A DNA stretch of 64,000 nt from an uncultured Gammaproteobacteria bacterium (GCA_963722915.1 CAVROR010000012.1:2182-66181); one strand, 5' to 3'; numbered from the stretch's first letter, positions 8,746 through 29,008 are shown. Notes: a model not told the origin generated them from the letters alone. Translations and numbers: made by a program.

Positions 8746-8773
8746 AAAAACCCCGCCTCGGCGGGGTTTTTTT
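8746..8773 (+). terminator. rho-independent terminator of fadL
   Basis: aaaaaCCCCGCCtcgGCGGGGttttttt, 30 nt after the fadL stop. Confidence 0.85.
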
Positions 8774-8925
8774 ATGGATGCAAGGGACGGGCGACATAGC
8801 CTGCGTCGGTCGTTTGGCCCATCTGAAACCTGAAAGTGATCTGCCGCCGCCAGTGTCATGCAGACGGTGAAGCAGATCCCTCTCTGCGTTCGGGACTGAC
8901 CTGCCCCCAGTAGCCGTACCGCCAG

Positions 8926-9312
8926 TTACTGGGAGAGTCCGGGGTTGAAGGGTACTGCGGTGGGGTTGGATTGGGTTCGGTGGTTAGCGGCAAACTGGGC
9001 CGGCGGGATGCGTCCGCAACTGCTGTGCGGTCGCACCTGGTTGTAGTCGCGGCGCCACTCGGCGATGACGTCGCGGGATTGGACCAACGACGCGAACCAG
9101 TGCTCGTTGAGGCACTCGTCGCGGAACTTGCCGTTGAAGCTCTCGATGTAGCCGTTTTGCATGGGCCGGCCAGGTTCGATCAGCAGGTGCTGGATGCCGT
9201 GCTGCTGCGTCCATGCAATGAAGGCCCGGCTGGTGAACTCCGGACCGTTGTCGGTGCGCACGGCCCGCGGGTAGCCGCGGAACCGCGCCGCCTGGTCCAG
9301 CACGCGCACGAC
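8926..9312 (-). pseudogene. IS3-family transposase OrfB, C-terminal fragment
   Basis: VVRVLDQAARFRGYPRAVRTDNGPEFTSRAFIAWTQQHGIQHLLIEPGRPMQNGYIESFNGKFRDECLNEHWF... (DDE integrase core, third acidic residue region). Begins abruptly at the 9312/9313 junction. Confidence 0.9.
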
Positions 9313-9403
9313 TGCGTATTGCCACCGAGTTGACCACTCATTGCCAAATCAACTGACCGCAATCGGCAGCACCACTGACCACGGTCGCCATCCAACTGAC
9401 CAG
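9313..9403 (+). repeat. left-end terminal repeat array (4-5 units, 21-23-bp period)
   Basis: tattgccacc, then TGACCAC 9331, CTGACCGC 9353, CTGACCAC 9375, CTGACCAG 9396. This is the inverted orientation of the right-end array. Confidence 0.8.
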
Positions 9404-9596
9404 TTCCCGACTTCAAATTCATTCTTTGCATGCTGTGTAGCACATAGGAGCATCTAGCTTCAGCCCTGATCGATCTGCGTCATCAGAGCCGAAGTAAGGG
9501 AGGCAAGCGAACGTGAGGGTCGGCAGGGATTCGTGTAAAAAACAGCCGAATTCGCTCTAAGTCTTTGACTCCACAAGCTTTAGGCCGTGTACCAAC

Positions 9597-10577
9597 TCAT
9601 AAATTCAATCTGGCGACGCCGTATGCTGCGGTGACCTCTCGGTCGCGTTTCTGCAGCCAGTCTTTGGTGGCACTTCGTCCGATCGGTGTGCCGGCGCGAC
9701 GATGAACCAGCTGCGCGAGCTTCACGCGCATGCCCGGATCACGGCACAGAAAAATGATCGGTTCGAGGTCCGCGCCGATAAACGCGTGCCCGTCCGCTAA
9801 CAGCCGTCTCGCCAGTTCGACCCGCTGGGCATGGCCGCCGAGGACTGCATTGAGAGCTTTAACCGCCGCGGCCCGTTTCGGCCCCTCGTCCGGCAACTGG
9901 GCGGCGTAGCTATGGCGAAGCTTGGAGACCGCCCGCATTTCCTGCTCGACTCTGCCGGGCGCGCAGGCCCTCACTCCCGGCAAATTACCCACCGGGATGG
10001 GTACCACCTTGGGCGGACTGATGACGTCGCCCGCCTCGTCTCGAATTGCGGGTGTAAAGCCCTGAACCGTTACGCGCGTCGAGCCTGACAACGCTTGGGT
10101 TCCAATGCGGGCCCATGTCGAAGGCCCGGTTGCAGTGGCAAGTCGATAAAAATGCGTGTGGAGTTCTTTGAGTTCGTCGAGCACCCGACCGAGCTCAGCA
10201 ATTTTAGCCTCACGGTCGGCAAGCAGCGTTTGCAAACGTCCCTCGCGTTCCAGCCGTGTGATCTCGTTGTCGGCTCGCTTCATGTCCTGCAAGGCAATCG
10301 AGCCGGCCGCAAACTTGTCCTGGGCGCAGTCCCCGCCAATCAGCGTCACGGCGCCGTCTTTGCGCCGAGCGACCCATCCCCGCCCATGTTTTCGACTGCA
10401 GAGCTTTCCTGTCGGCTTAAGTACGCAACACAACAGGGGTTCGTCGGCGAACGCGTACCACCCCACCAGCATCGCGTAACTGTCGACGTCGATGGGTTCG
10501 TCAGGCCGAAAATGCGGCTCCCTCAGGATCTCGGCGACTGATTCGAACCTGCGCACCCCTTGGACGGTTTCCACCAT
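9597..10577 (-). CDS. hypothetical protein, 326 aa, no family recognised
   Basis: Intact ORF with GGAGAC 6 nt before the ATG. N-terminal Cys/His cluster (CCVLKPTGKLCSRKHGRGW...GGDC), central predicted coiled coil (LQDMKRADNEITRLEREGRLQTLLADREAKIAELGRVLDELKELH). No signal peptide or TM segment. Visibly lower GC than the core genome. Confidence 0.7.
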   Translation of the reverse strand: MVETVQGVRRFESVAEILREPHFRPDEPIDVDSYAMLVGWYAFADEPLLCCVLKPTGKLCSRKHGRGWVARRKDGAVTLIGGDCAQDKFAAGSIALQDMKRADNEITRLEREGRLQTLLADREAKIAELGRVLDELKELHTHFYRLATATGPSTWARIGTQALSGSTRVTVQGFTPAIRDEAGDVISPPKVVPIPVGNLPGVRACAPGRVEQEMRAVSKLRHSYAAQLPDEGPKRAAAVKALNAVLGGHAQRVELARRLLADGHAFIGADLEPIIFLCRDPGMRVKLAQLVHRRAGTPIGRSATKDWLQKRDREVTAAYGVARLNL

Positions 10578-10584
10578 CTCTGTC

Positions 10585-10758
10585 TCCGGCTCTGAGCTCT
10601 GTCGATCCTAAGGAGGGTCGGCAGGCAGGGCGAGCGATACCCTGTTCCAGTTTGGCAATGTAGCGCCGCACCTGCTCATCGCCCCATTGCTTGCGTGTGT
10701 AGCGGATGACGCCGCGCATGTCGGCTTCTGCCGCATCCGTCAGCATGAAGACGGTCAA
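10585..10758 (-). pseudogene. parE: ParE/RelE-family toxin, N-terminal ~55 codons only
   Basis: (MTVF)MLTDAAEADMRGVIRYTRKQWGDEQVRRYIAKLEQGIA...PSLG..ELRAG matches the N-terminal half of ParE toxins. The C-terminal half is missing and the frame runs into unrelated sequence. The start overlaps the parD stop. Confidence 0.7.
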
Positions 10759-11009
10759 ACGCGGCGGCCTTCGGCCAGTTCTTCATTGAGGATTTCGTTG
10801 ACGCTCTTGGCCGACACCTTCCCCGCCAGACCCTCGTTGATGCGCCCACCCAACAGGACTTTCAGCTCCTGCCATGCCTGATCGGCGTGGATGTCGCCGG
10901 GAAAGAGTCGTTCGAGTGCATATTGCTTGATCGTCTTGCCCTGCACGGCGGCCAACGCCTTGAGGCTTTGGTGCTGCTGGTCGGTGATGTCGATAGTCAG
11001 CCGGCTCAT
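10755..11009 (-). CDS. parD: ParD-type ribbon-helix-helix antitoxin
   Basis: MSRLTIDITDQQHQSLKALAAVQGKTIKQYALERLFPGD..., 84 aa. The stop overlaps the toxin start (TTGA). Confidence 0.75.
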   Translation of the reverse strand: MSRLTIDITDQQHQSLKALAAVQGKTIKQYALERLFPGDIHADQAWQELKVLLGGRINEGLAGKVSAKSVNEILNEELAEGRRV

Positions 11010-11116
11010 CGATAAATGGCTCCGTAGGCTCCCACAAACCCACATTGGCACATAAGGAAGCAACGAGCAATCCGAGAACGTACAGACGCTTCAGGCCCAA
11101 GAACTTCATGCCAGAT

Positions 11117-11132
11117 AGTGAGTTAACTCACT
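11117..11132. promoter_or_regulatory. perfect 16-bp palindrome AGTGAGTTAACTCACT (candidate operator)
   Basis: Exact dyad, about 110 bp upstream of the parD ATG, at the junction with the ynfA stub. Confidence 0.35.
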
Positions 11133-11143
11133 TTTGGCTGTTC

Positions 11144-11245
11144 TTAGCACGATTCCCTGCCGGCCCTTAGATAGGGCAGATAGCAGCCGACAATCTCGGT
11201 CAGGGCGGTCAACGCGAACAGCGCAAAGAGCTTCAGAACCAGCAT
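11144..11245 (-). pseudogene. ynfA: YnfA (UPF0060) family membrane protein, first ~30 codons only
   Basis: MLVLKLFALFALTALTEIVGCYLPYL... matches the YnfA N-terminus (E. coli: ALCEIIGCFLPWLWL), followed by a premature stop. The full family length is about 108 aa. Confidence 0.55.
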
Positions 11246-11327
11246 GGTTAGCCTCGTGGAGTGAAGGGCGCACCGTAGTGCTGCGGCGCTCGTTCGAAAC
11301 CGTCGCCGCAACACCAGACCCCATGCG

Positions 11328-17023
<5,696 letters not shown>

Positions 17024-17034
17024 GCGTGGCGGCC

Positions 17035-18051
17035 TCAGTGGTCGTGCGAGGCGCCGGACTTCTCGATGTCCGCCTTCACCAGGTAGCTCTGCTCGACCAC
17101 GACCTGCTCGCCGGCTTTGAGGCCGGACAGCACTTCGACCCGCGCTGGCATCGCGCTTGCCCAAGCTCGACCGGCCGCACCTCGTAGGTGTCGCCCGACG
17201 CGGACGAACACCACGTCCCAGTCGCGGAACCGTGTCTGCAGCGCCGTCGAGCGGCACCACCAGCGCGACCGGCTGCTGCGCCACCGTGATGCGCGCCTTG
17301 ACCGCCGAGCCCGGCCGCCACAGGCCATCGACGTTCTGCGATGCGTCGCGCGCGCGACGGTGCTCTGGCTCGCGGTTGCCGTGCCGGCAGCACGCGTTCG
17401 AGCACCGTTTCGGCGGTCACGCCGTCGCTCATGCGGGTCACGACCACCGGGCACGCCCGGCGGTGATGTGCTGCGCATCGGCACCGAAGATGTGCAGGTC
17501 GACCCACAGCTCGGACAGGTCCGCGATCTCGAACAGCGGCACGCCTTCGCTGGCGACCGCGCCGACGGCGGCATCGCGCGCCAGCACCACGCCGGAGATC
17601 GGCGCGGCGACGGTGTACGTCGTCAGGCTGAGATTGCTTTCGATCGTCGCCAGCGCCTGGCCCGCCGCGACACGGTCGCCGACGTTGGCGCGCAGCGACG
17701 GATCGGGCCGGGGAAGCGCGCCGTGACCTGCGCGACGCGGCCTTCGACCGGCGTCAGCAGGCCCTGCACCTCATGCTCGTCGGCGATCGTGCCGGCCGCG
17801 ACCGCCGCGACCTCGACCCCGGACTGCTTGGCGACGTCCGCCGCAATGGTGGTGCTGGGCGGGCCTTCTTCGTGCCCGGCTTCGCTCTCGGCGTGCTTAT
17901 CGCCGCCGCTGGACGCTGCGCCGGCGTCGTGGTCGTCGTTGTGTGCTTCACCGGCGTGCTCGTCGGCACCTGCGGGCGGCGTTGCCGGCTTGTCGCCGCA
18001 GCCGGCCAGCAGCATGACCAAGGCCAACTGGGCCAGGGTGGAACGGATCAT
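17035..18051 (-). pseudogene. czcB: RND membrane-fusion protein CzcB, frame broken several times
   Basis: Lipoprotein N-terminus MIRSTLAQLALVMLLAGCG with a His/Asp-rich region. Middle part (GDTYEVRPVELG) and C-terminus (VEVLSGLKAGEQVVVEQSYLVKADIEKSGASHDH) are in other frames. Confidence 0.7.
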
Positions 18052-19328
18052 GGGGTGTCTCCTTGCAGGCGCTCAGGCGCGGCAGTCACAAAGGACTCGC
18101 CGGTCAGGCGCTGGATTTCGATCAGGGCACGCTGGGCTTCCAGCGCGGCTTCGAGTTGTTGTTTGCGCGCGTTTGTCGTCTCGGACTGCAACTGCGCCCA
18201 TTCGAGGTAGCTGATCGCGCCGGCCCGGTAGGCCTGTTCGGCGGCCGCTTCGGCACGCGTGAGCTTCGGCAACACGTCGCGCTGCAGGCGGTCGACCTCG
18301 ACCTGCGCCGACAGGAAACGGCCATGTGCTTCGGCGAGCGTCGAATACAGGGCCAGACCGCGTGCTTCGCGCTCGATCTCCAGCGACACCAGCTCGGCCT
18401 GGGCTTGGCGGATCTCAGGCTTCGCGCGGGTGGCGCCTCCCAACGGCATCGAGATGCTGCCCACCAGTGCGACATCGTCGCTGGCCTGCAGACGACGCAC
18501 GCCAATCTGCCAATCCAGATCCGCACTGGCCGATGTGCGTGCCAGTTGCAGGCGCGCCTCGCGAATACGTAGCTCGCCAGCGAACTGCGCCAGCTCCGGC
18601 GTGCGCTGCAACAGATCCGCCAGCTCACCGAAGGCAGCGATGCGGGGCAGCGCGAGCGGGTTGGCCGCGACCACATCGAAGGTCGGAGCGCGCTCGCCCC
18701 ACAGGGCGGCCAGGTGCTGTCTGGCCGCGACGTGGCGCTGATCGGCGCGAGCATGATCAAGCTCCGCGCGGGCCAGCATGGCCTGCGCGGTGAGCACGAC
18801 CGACTCGGGCGACGCCCCGGCCTCGAGGCGCTTGCGCGCCCCGGCGACGGTACGGGTGCGCTGCCCGATGTCGAGTTGCGCGATCTCGCGCTGACGCATC
18901 GCCGAGACGATGGCCAGATAACGCCGAGCAACCTCGGCCAGCAGGTCGAGCCGGCGCACTTCGCGCTCCAGCGCGAGCGCATCGATCCGGCTTTGCCCCA
19001 GAGTGCGGCGTGCTTCGAGTTTGCCGCCGCGCTCGAACACCGAGGCCAACGTCAGGGTCAGTTCGGCGCCTTGCACGCCGCTGGCGTCGCCGGTGCCGCC
19101 GACGTTCTCGAGTTCGGCGCCCACCACCCACGGCGGTCGGAACGCGGCCCGGTCCCGCTCGGCAGTGAGCGCGTCACGGCGCGGCCCCAGCAGTCTTAAG
19201 TCAGGGTGGGTCTTGGCGACGCGCTCGAAGGCGTCGTTCAGGGTCAAGCGGTCGGCAGCGAGCGATGGCCAGACGGCCAATGCGCACGCCGCGACGAGCA
19301 CGGCTTTCGCCGCGAGTCGCAAACGCAT
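18048..19328 (-). CDS. czcC: TolC-family outer-membrane factor CzcC
   Basis: Intact 426-aa ORF with a signal peptide and two OEP-type repeats. The stop overlaps the czcB start. Confidence 0.85.
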   Translation of the reverse strand: MRLRLAAKAVLVAACALAVWPSLAADRLTLNDAFERVAKTHPDLRLLGPRRDALTAERDRAAFRPPWVVGAELENVGGTGDASGVQGAELTLTLASVFERGGKLEARRTLGQSRIDALALEREVRRLDLLAEVARRYLAIVSAMRQREIAQLDIGQRTRTVAGARKRLEAGASPESVVLTAQAMLARAELDHARADQRHVAARQHLAALWGERAPTFDVVAANPLALPRIAAFGELADLLQRTPELAQFAGELRIREARLQLARTSASADLDWQIGVRRLQASDDVALVGSISMPLGGATRAKPEIRQAQAELVSLEIEREARGLALYSTLAEAHGRFLSAQVEVDRLQRDVLPKLTRAEAAAEQAYRAGAISYLEWAQLQSETTNARKQQLEAALEAQRALIEIQRLTGESFVTAAPERLQGDTP

Positions 19329-19383
19329 GAGAGTGCTCCGATGAACTCAGGGGATCGCAGGACCGGCACGCAGCCGGTAGCGG

Positions 19384-19767
19384 TCATGCCCGGATCGGAG
19401 GACGGAACGGGGCCAGTGCGGGCTCGGTCGCCACGCGTTGCGCGGTCCAGGGCCGTATCGGCAAGGGAGCGTGGACCGTCAGCGGCGCGTCGATGACCGG
19501 CGCGAGCATCGCCGAGAGCTGGCCACAACAATGCGCAAAGTGGTGAATGAGGTGCAGGGTTCCGGCAGTGCGATCACCCGATTCGTCGGCTTGCGCCAGT
19601 TCGGTCTGGACATCACTGCCGTCGTGTAGGTGCTGCTCGCTGAGCCCGTGGGTCAGCTCGTGCAATTCGCCCATCGCCGCCAGCATCGGCTGAAATACCC
19701 CGCCCAATAGCAGCCCCACCAGCAGGAGCCAGGGCAGGAGCGATCGATGGGAAGGGTGGCGCTTCAT
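19384..19767 (-). CDS. CzcI-like small periplasmic protein
   Basis: 127 aa with a signal peptide and the motif HLIHHFAHCCGQLS, resembling the CC/His motif of CzcI. Position immediately upstream of czcC. Confidence 0.55.
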   Translation of the reverse strand: MKRHPSHRSLLPWLLLVGLLLGGVFQPMLAAMGELHELTHGLSEQHLHDGSDVQTELAQADESGDRTAGTLHLIHHFAHCCGQLSAMLAPVIDAPLTVHAPLPIRPWTAQRVATEPALAPFRPPIRA

Positions 19768-20393
19768 GGGGCGGTGTTTTCGTTGTGCCGTCGCGTCGAC
19801 GAGCGCGCTTGTCGCGCCTCTCGCAGGATCTCAACAGCTTCCTTGACCACGTAAAGCCCGATCAAAGTGCCTATCACGTAGTCAGGGTACGGTGACGCAA
19901 GCACCATCACCAGCAGTCCTGCCACGATCACACCGATATTGGCCACCACGTCGGCCCGGGTGAAGATCCACGTGGATCGTAAGTGCACTTCACCAGAGCG
20001 GAACGGCGCGAGTAGACGCAAGACGGTGAGATTCACGGCCAGCGACAGCACGGCCGTAGCGATCATCCAGCTGCTTTGCGGCTCGGCGCCGTCCACCACG
20101 CGGCGGCCGACCTCGAGCAAAACCCCGAGCCCCAGTACCAGCAAGGCAACGCCGCTCACCATGGCGGCATTCGCCTTGAACCGCACCGAGCGGCCGATCG
20201 CCACCAGCCCGATCGCATAGGCCGTCGCGTCAGAAAGCATGTCGAGCGCGTCCGCCAGCAGGCCGGTCGATTGGCCCTTCCAGCCGGCGATGCCGCCAAT
20301 GACGGCCATCGACGCATTGAGAACCAGCGCGATCACAAGGATGCGCCGTTCGTTGGCATTCTTCGCTTCCGCGTGGCAACCGCAGTCGCTCAA
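19764..20393 (-). CDS. czcD: cation diffusion facilitator family transporter (short CzcD-like)
   Basis: MSDCGCHAEAKN... with TM motifs LLADALDMLSDATAY and RADVVANIGVIVAG. The stop overlaps the next gene (ATGA). Confidence 0.8.
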   Translation of the reverse strand: MSDCGCHAEAKNANERRILVIALVLNASMAVIGGIAGWKGQSTGLLADALDMLSDATAYAIGLVAIGRSVRFKANAAMVSGVALLVLGLGVLLEVGRRVVDGAEPQSSWMIATAVLSLAVNLTVLRLLAPFRSGEVHLRSTWIFTRADVVANIGVIVAGLLVMVLASPYPDYVIGTLIGLYVVKEAVEILREARQARSSTRRHNENTAP

Positions 20394-20440
20394 CGGGCGC
20401 TCCTCGACTCGGTTCCCGACGTGGCATCCGACAGGGAGCC

Positions 20441-20471
20441 AGCGTAAAGTCCGTACCCACTACGGAGTCAA
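20441..20471 (-). promoter_or_regulatory. MerR-type promoter: -35 TTGACT, 19-bp spacer containing a dyad, -10 TACGCT
   Basis: Minus strand reads TTGACTccgtagtgggtacggacttTACGCT. Dyad TCCGTA-N5-TACGGA lies at 20450-20466. About 48 nt upstream of the czcD ATG and divergent from merR. Confidence 0.6.
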
Positions 20472-20481
20472 GACGGTCCGC

Positions 20482-20898
20482 ATGAAGATCAGCGAAGCGG
20501 CAGCCGCGAGCGGTTGCCATCTGGAAACCGTCCGCTATTACGAGCGGGTGGGGTTAATGCCGGCTCCGGCGCGGGTGGGCAGCGGGTACCGTGCCTATTC
20601 CGAGCAGGATGTCGCGCGGCTGCGCTTCATCACGCGCGGTCGGACCTTGGGCTTCAGCCTGGACGACATTCGCAGTCTTCTACGACTGGACGATGACCCG
20701 CAGTTGTCTTGCACCGAGGTGGATGGCGTAGCGCGCACCCACCTGGCTGATGTTCGACGCCGGATCGATGCCCTGCAGCGCATCGCGGACGAGCTGGAAC
20801 GGGTCATCACCCAATGCGCCGGCGGTGTACGCGGGCAGTGCGCCATCCTGGGCACGCTGCGGCACCCGACGATGGCATCGAGCGAGCCGCAGGGGTAG
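20482..20898 (+). CDS. MerR-family metal-responsive transcriptional regulator (CadR/ZntR-like)
   Basis: MKISEAAAASGCHLETVRYYERVGLMP...YRAYSEQDVARLRFITRGRTLGFSLDDI. C-terminal Cys residues (C...CAGGVRGQC). Confidence 0.85.
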   Translation: MKISEAAAASGCHLETVRYYERVGLMPAPARVGSGYRAYSEQDVARLRFITRGRTLGFSLDDIRSLLRLDDDPQLSCTEVDGVARTHLADVRRRIDALQRIADELERVITQCAGGVRGQCAILGTLRHPTMASSEPQG

Positions 20899-20902
20899 GC
20901 GC

Positions 20903-21223
20903 GTGACGCTGGATCGCTATCTGGAGGCGGCCACTCGCGAAAACACGCGCCGCAGCTATCAATCGGCGGTGCGCCATTTTGAAGTCGAATGGGGCGGCCA
21001 TCTTCCGGCCACCGCCGACAGCGTGGCGCGTTACCTGGCCGACCATGCCAGTCGCCTCGCGATCAACACGCTCAAGCAGCGGTTGGCGGCACTAGCGCAA
21101 TGGCACACCGAACACGGGTTCGTCGATCCAACCCGGCCGCCTCTGGTGCGCAAGCCGGATGCGTTGTATTCAATCCTAGATAGTCTGCGCAGGCCCATTT
21201 TCGAGCATCAGATTGCGGAATGA
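20903..21223 (+). pseudogene. tyrosine recombinase/integrase, N-terminal SAM-like domain only
   Basis: VTLDRYLEAATRENTRRSYQSAVRHFEVEWGGHLPATADSVARYLADHASRLAINTLKQRLAALAQWH...PLVRK. Similarity stops near 21165, where GC drops. No catalytic domain. Confidence 0.65.
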
Positions 21224-21452
21224 TGTGATCGCAAAACGCTTGCGCAGCATCGCCTCGCATGCGGAAACTTTGCGTTTCATCGTGGGCTAGAAAGCATCAC
21301 AAATACTGGTTCTTGATCGCCAATATTCCAGTGCCGTCAAAATAAAATAACGACAAAAAGATAAGTCGCGTGCCGTTGATTAAAACCCTATGCGATTGCG
21401 GGCGAAGTCGGTAATGTGCCGCTTCCTACTGCAACACAGGCACTGATTGCTC

Positions 21453-21743
21453 ATGGCAAGCGCTGATGTGTGGACGGAAGAGATCGTGGCGTCTTTCGGT
21501 CCGTACGTGCCACTAGCCCGCATTTGGCCATTACTGTCTCTGCCTTCGGCGGACGCAGCCAGAAGGGCTGCTGCAAGGGGGTCAACGCCAGTGCAATGCG
21601 TCTCCCTAGAAGGAAGACGCGGCTGGCATCTGCGTGCAGGTGACTTGGCGCTTTGGCTGAGCGAATCGCTGCACGATACGCGGACTGGTAATGAAGCTCG
21701 CGAATTCGCCCGCGAGCAAATTCGGCGGTTGACCAAAGACTGA
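21453..21743 (+). CDS. PrtN-like (pyocin activator family) small DNA-binding protein
   Basis: MASADVWTEEIVASFGPYVPLARIWPLLSLPSADAARRAAARGSTPVQCVSLEGRRGWHLRAGDLALWLSE follows the PrtN/excisionase-like pattern. Lies in a low-GC, AT-rich setting. Confidence 0.5.
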   Translation: MASADVWTEEIVASFGPYVPLARIWPLLSLPSADAARRAAARGSTPVQCVSLEGRRGWHLRAGDLALWLSESLHDTRTGNEAREFAREQIRRLTKD

Positions 21744-22064
21744 TCGCCAAGCACTCAGCTACGTCCGGGCTTACCTGCCACTAACCGCGCGAACCCAGGT
21801 CATCGACCAACACCAACGGCAAGGAGATCACCAACCGGGAACTTTCAAGCCGCGTTTCAGAGCACTAACCAAAAAGCACGGGCGTAAAAAAAGCCGGCGC
21901 CTTCACGGGGCACCAGCTTTTCTCGTGGGAACTACGCTGTCGTTTGTTAGGGCGACGGCTGCATTCTCATTCGCTGCACCCGGCATGTCAAGCGCTCGCG
22001 GCCGCCCCAACGGCGCGCGACGGGCAGCTGCGTCCGCTCGATTCGTATCGAATGAGAAGAATTC

Positions 22065-23587
22065 ATGATCCAAAAAAATCTATGTCGGCTGCTGCTCACC
22101 ACAGACCTGTCGAATCGCGAGATTGCGCAGCGATGCAGCGTTTCTCACAACACCGCCGGACGCTATCGAGAACGGCTCCTCGAAGAGAGCTTATGCTGGG
22201 AACAGGTTCGCAGGCTTTCCGGAGAAGCGCTCAACGCCCGCCTCAACGGGGCGCGCGATCGACGCAAAAAGACGTTTGTCGAACCTGACTGGTCTCATGT
22301 TCACGCCGAGCTTCATCGACCTGGCGTAACGATCACTCTTCTGTACAGGAGTATGCGACAGGCATTGATGCGGGACAGATGTCAGACCGCGAGTTTCGCC
22401 GTCGCTACGATCGTTACACACGGTCCCTTGGCCTAGTGATGCGCCAAGCGCGCCGACCGGGCGAAGAGCTCTACGTTGATTACTCGGGTAAGCGCCCCTC
22501 AGTGGTGGATGCGAATACGGGCGTTGCAACTCCAGTCGAATTGTGGATCGGCGTGCTCGGTTCCAGTCGGAAAACGTTCGCGTATTGCACGCCGACCCAG
22601 CAAGTTCCGGACTGGATCGACGCACATGTACGTGCACTTGAGTTTTACGGCGCACTGCCTCAGCACTTGGTGCCGGACAACCTCAAATCGGCGGTAACCA
22701 AGATTTCGCGCAAGGACGGCCACTACGTCAATCCCTCCTACCAGGCATTCGCAGACCACTATGACCTGATGGTCTTGCCGACGCGTCCGCGCAAGCCAAA
22801 AGACAAGGCCGCCGTCGAATGCGGAGTGCGGTTGGCTCAAATGTGGATCCTCGCGCGACTCAGAAACCGCACTTTTTTCTCGATTCAGGACTTGAACAGG
22901 GCAATCGCTGAGTTGCTGATTCGGCTCAATAGCAGACCGATGCGCTTGCGCGGTGGAAAGAGCCGAAACGACTTGTTTGAGGAAATCGACTCACCGGCGA
23001 TGCGGCCTCTTCCGGTACAGGCCTATGAGTTCGCAGAGTGGCGGATCGGAGTAACGATTGCGCAGGACTATCACGTCGTCTCGGAGCGCAACTACTACTC
23101 AGTTCCCTACACACTGGTGTCGCGGAAGGTCAACGTGCGCATAACTACCACTGTGATCGAGGTTTACCACCGCGATCAACTCGTCGCCACGCATCAACGC
23201 TCCTACGGTATAGATGATGTCTTCACCAAATCTGAGCACCAGCCACCAGCGCATCGGCTCTACGGGGAAGAACAAATGGCCAGCCTCATCGCATGGGCTG
23301 AAGCAGCAGGACCTCTCGTCGCCGACTTCGTTCGCCAGCACATGAAGTCTCATTCTGCCGCCGCCTCAATCCAGGCGTTTCGTGGCCTCAAGCGGCTTGC
23401 ACGGGATTTCAGTGTGGAACGCCTGAGTGATGCGTGTGCGCGCGCACTCCGCATGAAGGCGACCTCAATCACATCCGTGCGCTCAATGCTCTCGCGCGGC
23501 ATCGAGAAAACGCCGCTGCAGCTCGAAGCAGTCAATGAAGCAACTACGACCCACGCGAACGTGCGTGGTGCCGAAAATTATCAGTAG
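22065..23587 (+). CDS. istA: IS21-family transposase IstA (one frameshift near 22346 in this sequence)
   Basis: N-terminal HTH piece MIQKNLCRLLLTTDLSNREIAQRCSVSHNTAGRY...VTITLLY (frame 0) continues as (Q)EYATGIDAGQMSDREFRRRYDRY...LYVDYSGK...LVPDNLKSAV (ORF 22379..23587) if one base is restored after CTGTAC. Confidence 0.85.
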
Positions 23588-23598
23588 GAAAGCTATAT

Positions 23599-24339
23599 AT
23601 GAACCACATCCACACGATCGGACAGCTGCGCAGCTTGCGCTTGGCCGGCATGGCCCAGGCATTTGAGCAGCAGATAGGCGACAGCGCTTTCGCGAGTTTG
23701 GCGTTCGAACAGCGCGTTCAGATGATGGTGGAAGCAGAGGCATCGCAGCGCGATACGCAGCGTTATCTGCGTCTGCTTAAGACGGCGAAGCTCAAGGTCG
23801 TTGCCGCACCTGAGGACATAGACTATAGGCCGGGACGCGGACTGGACAAAACCGTGATAGCCGACCTGCTGACATGCACGTGGATCAATGCACATCGCAA
23901 CGTGCTGATCACTGGCGCTACCGGCACCGGAAAAACATGGCTTGGTTGTGCGCTAGGCGTACAGGCAGCTCGTCATGGCATTTCTGTCGCATATCGGCGA
24001 ACAGCAAGAATGTTGGAAGAGATGGCGATCGGGCATGAAGATGGAACGATCTCACGTCAGCGCAACCAACTTGAGAAAGCACATCTGCTCATTCTCGACG
24101 ATTTCGGTCTGACCGCGTTGTCGAATCGCGGCCGATCCGACCTCCTTGAAGTGCTGGATGATCGAGTCGGAAGCGGCGCCACGCTCATCATTGGCCAGAT
24201 GCCCGTAAAGGAATGGCATGGATACATCAATGATCCAGCGCTCGCCGACGCCATTCTCGATCGACTCGTCCACAGCAGCGTCAAACTTGACTTGAAGGGC
24301 GACTCGATGCGGCGAGCCCGTAGCCGGGGTGGTCAATAG
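23599..24339 (+). CDS. istB: IS21-family helper ATPase IstB
   Basis: Walker A ITGATGTGKTWL and Walker B LLILDDFG. 246 aa, starts 12 nt after the istA stop. Confidence 0.9.
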   Translation: MNHIHTIGQLRSLRLAGMAQAFEQQIGDSAFASLAFEQRVQMMVEAEASQRDTQRYLRLLKTAKLKVVAAPEDIDYRPGRGLDKTVIADLLTCTWINAHRNVLITGATGTGKTWLGCALGVQAARHGISVAYRRTARMLEEMAIGHEDGTISRQRNQLEKAHLLILDDFGLTALSNRGRSDLLEVLDDRVGSGATLIIGQMPVKEWHGYINDPALADAILDRLVHSSVKLDLKGDSMRRARSRGGQ

Positions 24340-24500
24340 TTTGCCGGAGCTGGGCAGAGAACTGCCGGAACTGGGCAGCGAATTGCCTGAAGTGGGCACG
24401 CTGCTGCCGAAGCTGGTCAGCGTGTCCGCCGGTTGTGGTCAGTCTTGCTGGCGAACGTGGTCAGTGCGAATGGCGGAGGTGGGCAATGGGCTGGCGGTTC
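24330..24500 (+). repeat. right-end terminal repeat array, 8 tandem units with 21-23-bp period
   Basis: Cores TGGTCA/TGGGCA at 24330, 24351, 24372, 24393, 24414, 24437, 24459 and 24481. Unit approximately GCCGGAnnTGGkCAGnnnnnn. The array starts inside the last codons of istB and ends at the insertion junction. Confidence 0.85.
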
Positions 24501-24998
24501 GCACGACGTACGCGCCGCTGATGCCATGGTCGACCGTGATGTCGACGCACTCGTGGGTAAAGTCATCGGCGACCGTCAGACACTTCAGGCGGCGTCCATT
24601 GGCCAGCGCGTCGCTGACGAAGTCCATGCTCCACACCGCGTTGGGTGCTGTTGCCGACGACAGCGGCTGGCGTTCGCTCGGTGGCCTGCGGATCTTCTTG
24701 CGACGGCGAACGGCCAAGTTCGCCTCGCGATACAGGCGGTAGACCTTCTTGTGGTTCACAGCCGGGTACTCCGGACGCAGCAGGTCGTGCAGGCGGCGAT
24801 AGCCGAACCTGCGGCGCACCTGCGCCAGCTCGATGATCCGCGCCGACAGCGCCTGCGTCGCAGGCGCCTGTTCGGGCGGGTGGCGGAAGGCATCGCGGGA
24901 GAGCCCCGCAAGGCGGCAGGCCCGTCGTTCGCTCACTGCCGTGGCATCGAGCATGCGGCGGACCGCCTCGCGCTTGCGTTGCGGGGCTAGCGTTTTAC
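24501..24998 (-). pseudogene. IS3-family transposase OrfB, N-terminal fragment
   Basis: ...LAPQRKREAVRRMLDATAVSERRACRLAGLSRDAF...WSMDFVSDALANGRRLKCLTVADDFTHECVDITVDHGISGAYVVR, then the junction. Overlaps the orfA end in the -1 frame around GTAAAAC (24992-24998), the likely programmed frameshift site. Confidence 0.85.
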
Positions 24999-25253
24999 CC
25001 CGAAGCCGACCTTCAACGCCTCGATGTCCAGGTGCGCTTCGGCCAGCAGCCGCTTCAGCCGATTGTTCTCCGACTCCAGCTCCTTCAGGCGCTTGGCGTC
25101 CTCCGCCTCCATGCCGCCGTACTTGGCCCGCCAGGCGTAGAAGCTGGCCGGGCTGAAGCCGTGCTGCCGGCCCAGCTCCGATACCGCCATGCCGGCCTCG
25201 GCCTGCTTGATGAAGCCAATGATCTGTTCCGTGGTGAAGCGACTCTTACGCAT
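24987..25253 (-). CDS. IS3-family transposase OrfA (HTH)
   Basis: MRKSRFTTEQIIGFIKQAEAGMAVSELGRQHGFSPASFYAWRAKYGGMEAEDAKRLKELESENNRLKRLLAEAHLD, 88 aa. Confidence 0.9.
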   Translation of the reverse strand: MRKSRFTTEQIIGFIKQAEAGMAVSELGRQHGFSPASFYAWRAKYGGMEAEDAKRLKELESENNRLKRLLAEAHLDIEALKVGFGVKR

Positions 25254-25341
25254 GTCCGTCCTCTCTGGGTGACGGACTCTACCTAGCTTCGGCTGGTACG
25301 GCTCAGTGGGGGCAGGTCAGGACAACAACGGTCAGCCTTTA

Positions 25342-25376
25342 CCCGATTCCCGATTCCCGAATCCCGAATCCCGAAA
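25342..25376. repeat. heptanucleotide tandem array (CCCGATT/CCCGAAT)5
   Basis: cccgatt cccgatt cccgaat cccgaat cccgaaa. Lies 2 nt from the putA stop and 19 nt from the IS407-like end. Confidence 0.9.
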
Positions 25377-25378
25377 CG

Positions 25379-28300
25379 TCACTCCCCCAGCGTCAGCAGC
25401 GAGGCATTGCCGCCCGACGCGGTCGTGTTGATCGTGATCACCTTCTCGGTGGTGAAGCGCGGCAGGTAGTGCGGGCCGCCGGCCTTGGGACCGGTGCCCG
25501 ACAGGCCCTGGCCGCCGAACGGTTGCACGCCGACCACCGCGCCGATCTGGTTGCGGTTGACGTAGCAGTTGCCCACCCGCGCGCGCGTGGCGATGTAGTC
25601 CACCGTGCGGTCGATGCGCGAGTGCACGCCCAGCGTCAGGCCGTAGCCGGTGGCGTTGATCTGCGCCAGCACGCCGTCCAGGTCGTCGCCCTTCCAGCGC
25701 AGCACGTGCAGCACCGGCCCGAAGATCTCCTCGTGCAGCTGGTCCAGCGAGCGCAGCGCATACGCACGCGGGGCGAAGAAGCTGCCGTGCGCGGTGGCCT
25801 CGCCGATCGGCGCCTGGGCGATCAGCCGCGCCTCGCGCTCCATGCGCGCGGCGTGCTCGCGCAGCATCGTCATGGCGTCCTCGTCGATCACCGGGCCGAC
25901 GTCGGTCGACAGCAGGCCCGGGTCGCCCACGCGCAGTTCGGCCATCGCGCCGGCGAGCATCTGCTCGACCTTGTCGGCGATGTCCTCCTGCACGAACAGG
26001 ACGCGCGCGGCCGAGCAGCGCTGGCCGGCGGAGGTGAAGGCCGAGGCCATCACGTCCTTGACCAGCTGTTCGGGCAGGCACGAGGAATCGGCGATCAGCG
26101 CGTTCTGGCCGCCGGTCTCGGCGATCAGCACGGCGATGGCGGCATCGCGCGCGGCCAGCGCGCGGTTGATGGCGCGTGCGGTGCTGGTGGAGCCGGTGAA
26201 CGCCACGCCGGCCACGCGCGGGTCCTGGGTCAACGCGGCGCCGACGGTGGCACCGTCGCCCGGCACGAACTGCAGCACCGCCTCCGGCACGCCGGCCTCG
26301 TGCAGCAGCTGCGTGGCAACGAACCCGACCAGGCTGGTCTGCTCGGCCGGCTTGGCGATCACCGTGTTGCCGGCGGCCAGTGCCGCGGCCACCTGGCCGG
26401 TGAAGATCGCCAGCGGGAAGTTCCACGGGCTGATGCACACGAACACGCCGCGCCCGGACAGGTGCAGGGTGTTGGACTCGCCGGTGGGACCGGGCAGCAC
26501 GTCCGGCGCGAACAGTTCGCGCGCCTGCGCGGCGTAGTAGCGCAGGAAATCGACCGCCTCGCGCACCTCGGCGACCCCATCCGGGATGCTCTTGCCGGCC
26601 TCCTTGGTGCACATCGCGATGAACAGCGGCATGCGCGCTTCCATCAGGTTGGCGGCGTGCTCCAGGATCGCGGCGCGGCTGGCGGCCGGGGTCGCGTTCC
26701 AGTCCTCGTGCGCGGCCACGGCGTTGGCCAGTGCGCGCTCGACGGTGGCGCTGTCGGCCGGCGTCCAGTGGCCGGCGACCTCGCGGCGGTCGGCGGGGTT
26801 GGTCGAGGCGATCGGCTCACCGGTGGAGGTCGCGCCCGGCACCAGCGGCGTGGCGGTCCAGCGCTGCGCGGCAGCGGCGTTGACCTGCCCGGCCAGCGTG
26901 CGCAGTTGATCGTCGTTGGCGAGGTTCACGCCCATGGAATTGTTCCTCTGGATGCCGAAGCTGCGGTACAGGTCGACCGGCAGCGGAATGCGGGGATGCG
27001 GGATCTGTTCGAACGCGGCCACGGTCTCGACCGGGTCGCGCACCAGGTCCTGGATGGCGACGGCCTCGTCGGTGATGCGGTTGACGAAGCTGGAGTTGGC
27101 ACCGTTTTCCAGCAGGCGCCGCACCAGGTACGGCAGCAGGTCCTCGTGGCTGCCGACGGGTGCGTACACGCGGCACGGCACGTCCAGGCGGTCGGCCGGG
27201 ATGACTTCCGCGTACAGGTCGTCGCCCATGCCGTGCAGCTTCTGGAACTCGAAGCGGCCGGCGCGGCCCAGCATCGCCGCGCGGCGGTGGATGGCGGCGA
27301 TGGTGTGCGCGTTGTGGGTGGCGAACATCGGGTAGATGGCGTCGCCGGCTTCCAGCATGCGCCGCGCGCACGCCAGGTACGACACGTCGGTGTTGGGCTT
27401 GCGGGTAAACACCGGGTAGCCCGCCTGGCCGTCGACCTGGGCGCGCTTGACCTCGCTGTCCCAGTACGCGCCCTTGACCAGCCGCACCGGGATGCGGCGG
27501 CCATGGCGGCGGGCCAGGTCGGCGATGAAGCGATCACTTCCGGCGCGCGCTTCTGGTAGGCCTGCACGGCCAGGCCGTAGCCCTCCCAGCCGTCGAGCGA
27601 CGCATCGGCGTAGGCCGCGGCGATCACGTCCAGCGACAGCTCCAGCCGGTCGGCCTCCTCGGCGTCCACCGTGAAGCCGATGCCGTGGTTGCGCGCCAGT
27701 TGCGCCAGTTCCAGCACGCGCGGGGTGAGTTCGGCCAGCACGCGCTCGCGCTGGGCGTGCTCGTAGCGCGGGTGCAGCGCCGACAGCTTCACCGAGATGC
27801 TGGGCACGCCGAACACCTCGGCGCCGGCATAGGCGCCACTGCGTCCGATCGCCTCGATCGCATCGCGGTAGGCCTGCAGGTAACGCGCCGCATCGCCCGC
27901 GGTCAGCGCCGCCTCGCCCAGCATGTCGAAGGAATAGCGGTAGGCGGCGTTGGCGCCCTTCTTGGAACGCGCCAACGCTTCGCCGATGGTGCGCCCCATG
28001 ACGAACTGGTGGCCCATGATCCGCATCGCCTGGCGCACGGCCAGCCGGATCACCGGCTCGCCGACGCGGCCGACCAGGCGCTTGAAGGCGTTATGGACGT
28101 CGCGCCGGGTCTCGTCGGCCAGGTCGACCAGGTGGCCGGTCAGCATCAGGCCCCAGGTGGAGGCGTTGACCAGCACCGAGTCGGACCGGCCCATGTGGCG
28201 TTTCCAGTCGGCCTCGCCGAGCTTGTCGCGGATCAGCTTGTCGGCGGTGTCTTCATCGGGGATGCGCAGCAGCGCCTCGGCCACGCACATCAGCAGCACG

Positions 28301-28584
28301 CCTTCCTCGCTGCCCAGGTCGTACTGGCGCATGAAGGCCTCGATCGCGCCCTGCTGGCGCGCACGGGCGCGGACGCGCGCGACCAGGTCGGTCGCGGTGG
28401 CCTGCACCGCGGCGCGGTCGGCGTCGGGCAGGCGGGCCTGGTCGAGCAGGCCGCGCACGTGGGCGGCCTCGTCGCGGACCCAGCCGGCGGTGATGGCGGC
28501 GCGTGGGGCGGCGGGCGGGGCAGGCAGTTCGGGCGCGACCAGCGCGCGCGAGCCGCCGTCGACGGCAGGAGGAGGTATGTGCAT
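25379..28584 (-). CDS. putA: bifunctional proline dehydrogenase / P5C dehydrogenase PutA (one frameshift near 27532 in this sequence)
   Basis: N-terminal part in ORF 26926..28974 from MHIPPPAVDG to QAYQKRAPEVI. C-terminal part in ORF 25379..27487 (RLVKGAYWDSE, KLHGMGD, FVCISPWNFPLAIF, ETGGQNA). Span 3206 nt, one base short of a multiple of 3. Confidence 0.9.
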
Positions 28585-29008
28585 GGCGGAGGGCAGTCGC
28601 GCGGGCGCGCGGGGTAGCCGCATAGTGTAGGGCGCGCCGGCCCCGCCGCCCATGCCGGAACGGCCCGACGCCGGCGTACGTTCCCGGCACCGGCTGCTGC
28701 TGTGCCGAACCTGCCCGTCCGGCCCGCACGCCGCCATCCCGGCCCGGCATGGCGGGGTCCGGGCCGCATCCGGGCAGGCTTCCCCGACGTAGCTCAACTT
28801 GCCGCGGCCCCGCCCGGCGGCTACCATTTCGCGGATATCCGTAGCGCCGGTAACGGCGTGATGGGCCCCGCGCGACGCGATGGGCTCGCCAGCCACCTGT
28901 CTCCCGGACTTCTCCGGACGGCCTCCCGCGCAGCGTTGCGCGTGCCGGGCCGTGACAGGCAGCCCGCGGAGCACTCACCACCATCTTTGTTTTCTGGGGC
29001 TCGAAGTG

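Follow-up and report, generated by a model that had tools for sequence, protein, structure and literature searches.

The insertion sequence (IS) IS476 is a member of the IS407 group of the IS3 family, for which a 4-bp target duplication is usual (PMC2722093). The ends of IS21 consist of two direct repeats 23 bp apart, and 5′-TG...CA-3′ tips are required of IS21-type ends (PMC10122671). The inverted repeats (IRs) of TnXax1 carry a GAGGG tip (PMC4337579). In the present study a stretch of 64,000 nucleotides from an uncultured Gammaproteobacteria bacterium (GCA_963722915.1, CAVROR010000012.1:2182-66181; hereafter the window) was analysed, in which an IS of the IS407 group, located just downstream of fadL and of putA, is split by an insert of about 15 kb. 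This arrangement is, with high probability, the product of two nested DDE transposition events, in which an IS21-family transposon came to lie within the IS407-group IS and itself encloses a third mobile remnant. The nested insertion was confirmed, and as such it is nothing out of the ordinary. The interesting part is the inner element, namely an IS21-family transposon with large exchangeable cargo that belongs to an apparently undescribed clade.

The outer IS is present in two pieces on the minus strand. Its 3′ part (8897-9312) contains, next to the terminal repeat TGACCTGCCCCCA, the final 128 codons of orfB with the stop at 8926, and the other terminal repeat lies on the 5′ part (24508-25319) together with orfA (24987-25253) and the initial 149 codons of orfB, which encodes 277 amino acids (aa) and starts at 24954. 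The 13-mer TGACCTGCCCCCA starts at 8897 on the plus strand and ends at 25319 on the minus strand; these are its sole two occurrences in the 64 kb, even at one mismatch, while 0.03 occurrences are expected by chance. Directly outside the two repeats, GGAC is found at 8893-8896 as the left copy and at 25320-25323 as the right copy of the 4-bp target duplication. When the two pieces are rejoined, they form 1228 bp in which orfB is uninterrupted (...ITVDHGISGAYVVRVLDQAARFRGYPRAVRTDNGPEF...) and lies in the −1 frame relative to orfA. An earlier note on this DNA had described an IS407-like element with a GGAC duplication and imperfect terminal repeats, split by one large insertion, together with the position of orfA, the C-terminal part of orfB running from 9312 down to 8926 and the junction peptides ...ITVDHGISGAYVVR and VVRVLDQAARFRGYPRAVRTDNGPEF, and all of this was found as described. 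Its length of 1227 bp and its excision of 9313-24508 had to be corrected: removal of that interval would break the frame, and the interval that has to be taken out is 9313-24507 (15,195 bp).

The rejoined 1228 bp were aligned over 100% of their length and in a single piece with two copies from Xanthomonas plasmids, ISXca1 (81.9% identity) and IS476 (79.5% identity), and in the MAFFT alignment with ISXca1 no indel was present at the join. Full-length copies of 1227-1228 bp with 93-94.5% identity were detected at ten loci, and alignment to five intact 1228-bp copies (L018, L021, L022, L023 and L024) was gapless. As the earlier note had stated, rejoining restores one continuous orfB, the product of which aligns gaplessly over 277 aa with the intact OrfB of L018 at 96% identity. 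This intact sibling scored 241 bits against the NCBIfam IS3 transposase model NF033516 with its cut-off of 160, and orfA alone scored 50 bits and stayed below that cut-off. Two of the sibling copies are likewise flanked by 4-bp duplications (TCCG in L017, ACCT in L018). The layout of two open reading frames (ORFs) with orfB in the −1 frame, the end-to-end colinearity with IS476 and ISXca1 and the duplication GGAC place the outer element in the IS407 group. It resembles IS476 and ISXca1 in length (1225-1226 bp there), in the −1 overlap of orfA and orfB, the region GGGGTAAAACGC of which is conserved with ISXca1, and in its terminal TGACCTGCCCCC repeats, but it is distinct from both because the DNA identity amounts to only 80-82%; the nearest intact relatives are found in metagenomes and draft genomes. 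Within this known group, the outer element is a new isoform. Of the catalytic residues of OrfB, the first Asp (WSMDF) lies on one side of the inserted transposon and the second Asp (RTDNGPEF) and the Glu lie on the other, and this separation leaves the copy with a dead transposase.

The right boundary of the inner element was determined from a second copy. The exact IstB protein of the window was found on the metagenome contig L001, which is 99.9% identical to window 20173-24503 and then continues with unrelated DNA (...GGCGGTTCGCA|TTAGTG). Since L001 diverges exactly after 24503, the transposon ends at 24503, and the CGCA at 24500-24503 belongs to it. At the left, the tip TGCGTATTGCCACC at 9313 is shared with L005, L006 and five metagenome contigs (L010-L014), each of which has a different left flank. 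The inner transposon thus occupies 9313-24503 on the plus strand (15,191 bp) with the tips 5′-TGCG...CGCA-3′, and its target duplication is CGAC (4 bp), located at 9309-9312, where it is part of the IS sequence, and at 24504-24507. Right ends of the relatives L005, L006 and L007 read ...GGCG(G/T)TTTGCA, those of the wider set L005, L006, L007, L011 and L039-L046 all read ...TT(T/C)GCA, and the tip pattern of the clade is TGCGTATTGYCACC ... GGCGKTTYGCA.

A different delimitation had been given in the earlier note, according to which the insert is bounded by TGCG...GGCGGTT and has its own 8-bp duplication, CGCACGAC. Target duplications of 4-8 bp occur in the IS21 family, so that eight base pairs lie within the family range, relatives of the transposon have duplications of 6 and 7 bp, and the 8-mer does stand at both junctions, at 9305-9312 as claimed and in its second copy at 24500-24507 rather than at 24501-24508. 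This reading is nevertheless very improbable. The independent copy in L001 carries ...GGCGGTTCGCA ahead of unrelated DNA, every relative ends with TT(T/C)GCA, and both the 3′ CA end (PMC10122671) and the in-register alignment of the two tips as TGCGnAnnGCCAnC are obtained only when CGCA is counted in. Only the last four bases are therefore duplicated, with CGCA as the transposon terminus; that a full 8-mer stands at both junctions is due to a chance CGCA directly ahead of CGAC in the target. Both the 4-bp and the 8-bp reading yield the same rejoined IS.

Both ends of the transposon are built of repeats, which were mapped with a motif-phasing script. The left end (9313-9405, plus strand) carries, besides the tip TGCGTATTGCCACC, the repeat YTGMCCR in four phased copies at nt 18, 41, 63 and 84, and the same tip and phasing were observed in L005, L006 and L010-L014. 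The right end (24330-24503, minus strand), delimited by the L001 breakpoint, consists of the tip TGCGAACCGCCAGC, read on the minus strand, and seven to eight phased repeats; YTGMCCR was located at nt 18, 40, 62, 84, 126, 147 and 168 from the right tip. The phasing is 21-23 bp, the positions in L005 are identical, and the background is 0.23 per 200 nt. With Tandem Repeats Finder the left-end repeats were not detected and the right array was detected only in part. Compared with the two-repeat ends of IS21, the arrays are longer and asymmetric.

The transposition genes are located close to the right end. The gene istA (22065-23587, plus strand) encodes an IS21-family DDE transposase and is frameshifted in the window. 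Compared with the copy in L001, which is intact (507 aa), one base pair is missing at about 22,347; the gene is thereby split into ORFs of 123 and 402 aa, and the N-terminal helix-turn-helix (HTH) domain is cut off from the catalytic domain. After a gap of 11 bp istA is followed by istB (23599-24339, plus strand), which is intact and encodes the IS21 helper AAA+ ATPase of 246 aa. Pfam domains rve and Mu-transpos_C_2 were found in the 402-aa ORF and IstB_IS21 (PF01695, E-value 6e-68) in the 246-aa ORF. The intact IstA of L001 reached 233.5 bits against NF033546 (cut-off 160), and IstB reached 234.6 bits against NF038214 (cut-off 200). Membership of the insert in the Tn7, Tn5053 or Mu group is unlikely because IstA and IstB pass these IS21 equivalog cut-offs. 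IstA, the adjacent IstB, the repeat-built TG...CA ends and the short duplication are all characters of the IS21 family. The compact organization of an IS21-type IS, with about 2-2.7 kb, no passengers and the left end next to istA, is not found here: no left-end motif was present near istA, the left tip lies 12.7 kb away from it and the element measures 15,191 bp, and it is therefore an IS21-family-derived transposon and not a classical IS. Two other classes of element were considered and dismissed, namely a composite transposon formed by two IS21 copies, as only one istAB and one pair of ends are present, and a tyrosine-recombinase island, as there is no integrase and the ends are of the DDE type. 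The guanine-plus-cytosine (GC) content of the istAB core and the region upstream of it (window 21000-24400) is 56-58% compared with about 70% in the flanking chromosome, which is consistent with a recent foreign origin.

The relatives of the inner transposon, which was not recognised as an IS21-family transposon with metal-resistance cargo in the earlier note, differ from it in what they carry. Relatives with 72-78% IstA identity occur in Rhodanobacter, Chiayiivirga, Pirellulales and many metagenomes. In a Rhodanobacter metagenome-assembled genome (L005) a 6.9-kb unit has its left tip 4.4 kb upstream of istA, with unrelated cargo between them and a 7-bp duplication, GCCCCAT. In L006 the left tip lies 4.8 kb upstream of istA with a subtilase gene in between, in L013 the left tip is followed by a 1752-aa ORF, and in L007 no left-end motif was found within 10 kb upstream of istA. 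A 1258-bp mini-element in L011 (918-2175) has both IS21-type tips and a 6-bp duplication, CAAAGG, without istAB, and is a non-autonomous derivative of the same clade. In the P0135 group (L039-L047), with an IstA that is 72% identical, genes for HsdM/HsdS-like methylases of the restriction-modification type and an XRE/HTH_35 (Ner-like) pair are located upstream of istA, and a gene for a 553-aa DUF7380 protein with a weak PADLOC match to PDC-S39 lies between istB and the right tip; no left tip was detected within 9.7 kb in this group. The XRE/HTH_35 pair of the relatives is absent from the window element. A distant relative with 39% IstA identity (L008/L009) is a normal IS of 2657 bp, and the closest named relative in the plasmid collection, with 52% IstA identity, is annotated as ISPpu7 and sits on a Xanthomonas hydrangeae plasmid.

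From these comparisons, carriage of cargo appears to be a property of the clade, with close relatives holding different cargo at the same place. With confidence that is about evenly divided, the inner element can be assigned to an undescribed clade of IS21-family unit transposons with asymmetric many-repeat ends (four repeats left, about eight right) and exchangeable cargo that routinely fills 1 to more than 12 kb from the left end to istA and sometimes also occupies the stretch from istB to the right end. This cargo would comprise metal resistance, methylases of the restriction-modification type, a subtilase and candidate defence genes, and most members would have the XRE plus Ner-like (HTH_35) pair upstream of istA. 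In a limited literature search, no report on passenger or cargo genes in IS21-family elements was found. The presence of the same right end beside another flank in L001 and the four different right flanks of the P0135 group hint that such elements may still be mobile.

With respect to the host, FadL and PutA place it in the Lysobacteraceae near Novilysobacter, and PutA is 96% identical to that of GCA_020026895.1. A fadL-putA spacer, as assumed in the earlier note, does exist in this genome. In relatives the corresponding position is occupied by other DNA: the order is putA - TonB-dependent receptor - fadL in GCA_020026895.1 and another relative (L036, L037), and a BrxR/N6-methylase island follows fadL on metagenome contigs with 98% identical FadL (L025). 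The homology of relatives to the window ends at 8773, just past the fadL terminator, and at 25379, the putA stop, and the reconstructed 178-bp unique spacer (8774-8896 plus 25320-25378) has no counterpart in them. Just downstream of the putA stop, at 25343-25376, a heptamer-like repeat (CCCGATT/CCCGAAT, about five copies) was observed, and a similar run is present at L025 4-30.

Several observations weigh against two simple insertions at this site. GGAC matches over only 4 bp, which corresponds to 1 in 256 by chance. A 2.6-kb receptor gene is carried by relatives at the position of the IS, and the locus may have undergone deletion or rearrangement. No empty site for either insertion was found in the related genomes fetched via FadL and PutA homologues, none of which has fadL next to putA. 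The duplication lengths of the window element (4 bp), L005 (7 bp), L011 (6 bp) and L006 (none) are unusually variable for one clade. No second site with the left end of this very 15.2-kb element was observed, and the junctions 9312/9313, 24503/24504 and 25319/25320 obtained no independent read or contig support in the retrievable data. For the empty-site comparison proposed in the earlier note, in which a relative should hold a single GGAC, the fadL-putA intervals were compared; the comparison failed for lack of a suitable relative and not through a contradiction.

One alternative is that GGAC is a coincidence and that the TonB-dependent receptor gene was lost through a deletion caused by the IS or by recombination between two copies of it. 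The gene order in L036 and L037 and the abrupt ends of homology at 8773 and 25379 around a spacer without counterpart would fit such a deletion. Against it stand the matching 4-bp direct repeat at both IS ends and the variable content of the locus in relatives, owing to which the absence of the receptor gene can be unrelated to the IS. A deletion of this kind is quite improbable, and insertion of the IS with duplication of GGAC is retained as the first event.

The order of the two events had been regarded as fixed in the earlier note, and this holds in so far as the transposon needed an existing IS to enter. The site of that entry is not fixed, because both IS ends are intact and the composite could have been moved here by the OrfAB of a sibling; the order of insertion at this site was thus overstated. 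According to this alternative, the IS copy that received the transposon lay at another site, such as on a plasmid, and the 16.4-kb IS::transposon unit was then moved via the IS ends by OrfAB acting in trans, with GGAC generated at that step. The exact OrfA protein is very widespread in public assemblies (208 index blocks), which makes siblings that supply transposase plausible, and the site is not an ancestral fadL-putA spacer. On the other hand, no second IS copy is present in the window, no other contig with the same IS/transposon junction was found, and the transposon of L001 lies at a non-IS site. Copy-out-paste-in transposition of the IS3 family is, moreover, expected to be inefficient for a unit of 16 kb. 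Joint arrival of IS and transposon is considered unlikely, and direct entry of the transposon into the resident IS is preferred.

The source of the window looks like a draft (a 338-kb contig), and a misjoining of IS halves and a 15-kb segment at repeats during assembly was also weighed. Single-base indels are present in putA, where a 1-bp deletion at window 27531 relative to the Novilysobacter orthologue results in the overlapping ORFs 25379-27487 and 26926-28974, as well as in istA, and a cargo stretch of 6.5 kb contains about 50 net +1 insertions. However, a misassembly would explain neither two equally oriented halves that complement each other to a single IS, nor the exact 4-bp duplication at conserved IS21-type tips, nor the gapless alignment of the rejoined sequence with intact copies. 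In addition, independent short-read contigs of run ERR11593883 and of sample ERZ27279977 support the adjacencies of fadL and the IS end, of the ATPase gene, parD and the 326-aa ORF, of czcD-czcC-czcB-czcA and of merR-istA-istB and the right end. One ERR11593883 contig carries the exact FadL of the window and then, where the C-terminal end of orfB would lie, part of a gene on the minus strand, for which gene coordinates only are available; this supports the junction at 8897. An assembly artefact is therefore extremely improbable as the origin of the nested structure.

For the nested insertion the following course of events is proposed. In the first event a 1228-bp IS407-group IS would have inserted beside fadL and putA with duplication of GGAC. 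In the second, the 15,191-bp IS21-family transposon would have entered the transposase gene of this IS, duplicating CGAC and killing the transposase. By analogy with work on IS21 and IS5376, IstA would bind the phased 21-23-bp repeats of both ends and cut at the 3′ CA, and IstB, as AAA+ ATPase, would act on the target DNA, where IstA would join the ends at staggered positions.

The cargo of about 12.6 kb between the left end and istA comprises a TnXax1-type cassette with parDE, an ATPase gene, czcCBA, czcD and a merR-family regulator gene. The cassette-like segment (9515-11168) is of the TnXax1 type (Tn3 family) and represents the third mobile remnant. Its 35-nt IRs lie within 9515-9550 and 11133-11168 and have the tips GAGGG and AAGGG, and more than 200 Xanthomonas plasmids carry this repeat at 91-99% identity. 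Inside the cassette a 326-aa ORF of unassigned function (9597-10577, minus strand), without match in Pfam, NCBIfam or PADLOC and with an exact protein counterpart in run ERR11593883, and the parDE region (10501-11063, minus strand), with parD at 10755-11063 and a short parE-like ORF at 10501-10758, were annotated. The segment resembles TnXax1 cassettes in its pair of IRs of about 35 nt, the GAGGG tip and the enclosure of passengers without a transposase (PMC4337579). It differs from them in that one tip is AAGGG, that the passengers are parDE and the 326-aa ORF instead of effectors, and that no 5-bp duplication is present, the flanks being AACGT and AGATA. No further TnXax1 repeat bounding the czc cluster was found.

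The remaining cargo genes are, with one exception, located on the minus strand. A gene for a P1B-type (ZntA/CadA-like) heavy-metal ATPase (11328-13600, 5′ limit approximate) is split over at least three frames and is followed by a gene for a czcA-like resistance-nodulation-division (RND) pump (13800-17023, 3′ limit approximate) with many +1 frameshifts and an in-frame stop, a czcB-like adaptor gene (17038-18051), frameshifted below about 17,780, and an intact gene for a czcC-like outer-membrane factor (18048-19328). The region 19384-20393 contains a DUF2946 gene (19384-19767) and a gene for a czcD-like cation diffusion facilitator (19764-20393). The regulator gene (20482-20898) is on the plus strand, and its product is a metal-responsive regulator of the MerR family (CadR/PbrR/ZntR-like) that scored below every equivalog cut-off. 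From this predicted gene content, the element would behave as a unit transposon for resistance of the Zn/Cd/Co type. The order czcA-czcB-czcC-hypothetical-czcD-merR is shared with pXAC219, one of the Xanthomonas copper/metal plasmids, at a DNA identity of about 71-80%. There the czc cluster stands beside a Tn3-family transposase; in the window an IS21-type element surrounds it, a P-type ATPase gene adjoins it, and the frames of czcA and czcB are broken.

The frame breaks of the cargo lie in window 11328-17780, in which the ATPase gene, czcA and most of czcB are affected while the neighbouring genes are intact. In comparison with the Xanthomonas homologue, czcA and czcB contain about 50 net single-base insertions and an in-frame stop. 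The metagenome contig L034 is 99.95% identical to the window from 19754 down to 17780, where the identity drops abruptly to about 88% with 12 gap openings; the GC content is 72% in the frame-broken stretch compared with 68%. In an independent short-read assembly (ERR11593883) CzcB is intact (335 aa), and no paralogue that would explain the frame-broken cargo was detected within the window. The breaks are either real pseudogenes in a recombinant, GC-richer allele or unpolished indel errors. The logic of the junctions is unaffected by them, but the working of the cargo depends on them. Because istA is frameshifted and the ATPase gene, czcA and czcB are frame-broken, this copy would depend on IstA supplied in trans, and its cargo may fail to confer resistance, unless the breaks are sequencing errors.

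Nesting of one IS in another is routine, and its main value at this locus lies in a relative clock of insertions. Of greater consequence is that IS21-type machinery, so far studied as a minimal two-gene IS, is found with 7 to more than 15 kb that include metal-resistance genes or genes of the restriction-modification type, and would move them. Such elements are missed when istAB is simply labelled "an IS21 copy" during annotation, and their ends represent natural many-repeat substrates for current structural work on IstA and IstB. The inner element agrees with IS21 and IS5376 in an IstA with HTH, DDE and beta-barrel domains followed by the AAA+ ATPase IstB, and in ends with direct repeats about 22-23 bp apart, 3′ CA tips and a short target duplication (PMC10122671). 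It differs from them in that the classical elements are about 2-2.7 kb long and have istA directly beside the left end, while about 12.6-12.7 kb lie between the two here, in that four left and seven to eight right repeats are present instead of two and two, and in its duplication of 4 bp compared with the 5 bp of IS5376. If the proposed cargo-carrying clade is borne out, IstA/IstB would constitute a cargo-moving platform comparable to Tn7-like and Tn5053-like elements, and a further DDE-plus-AAA+ platform for the spread of adaptive genes would be added beside Tn7, Tn5053/Tn402 and Mu.

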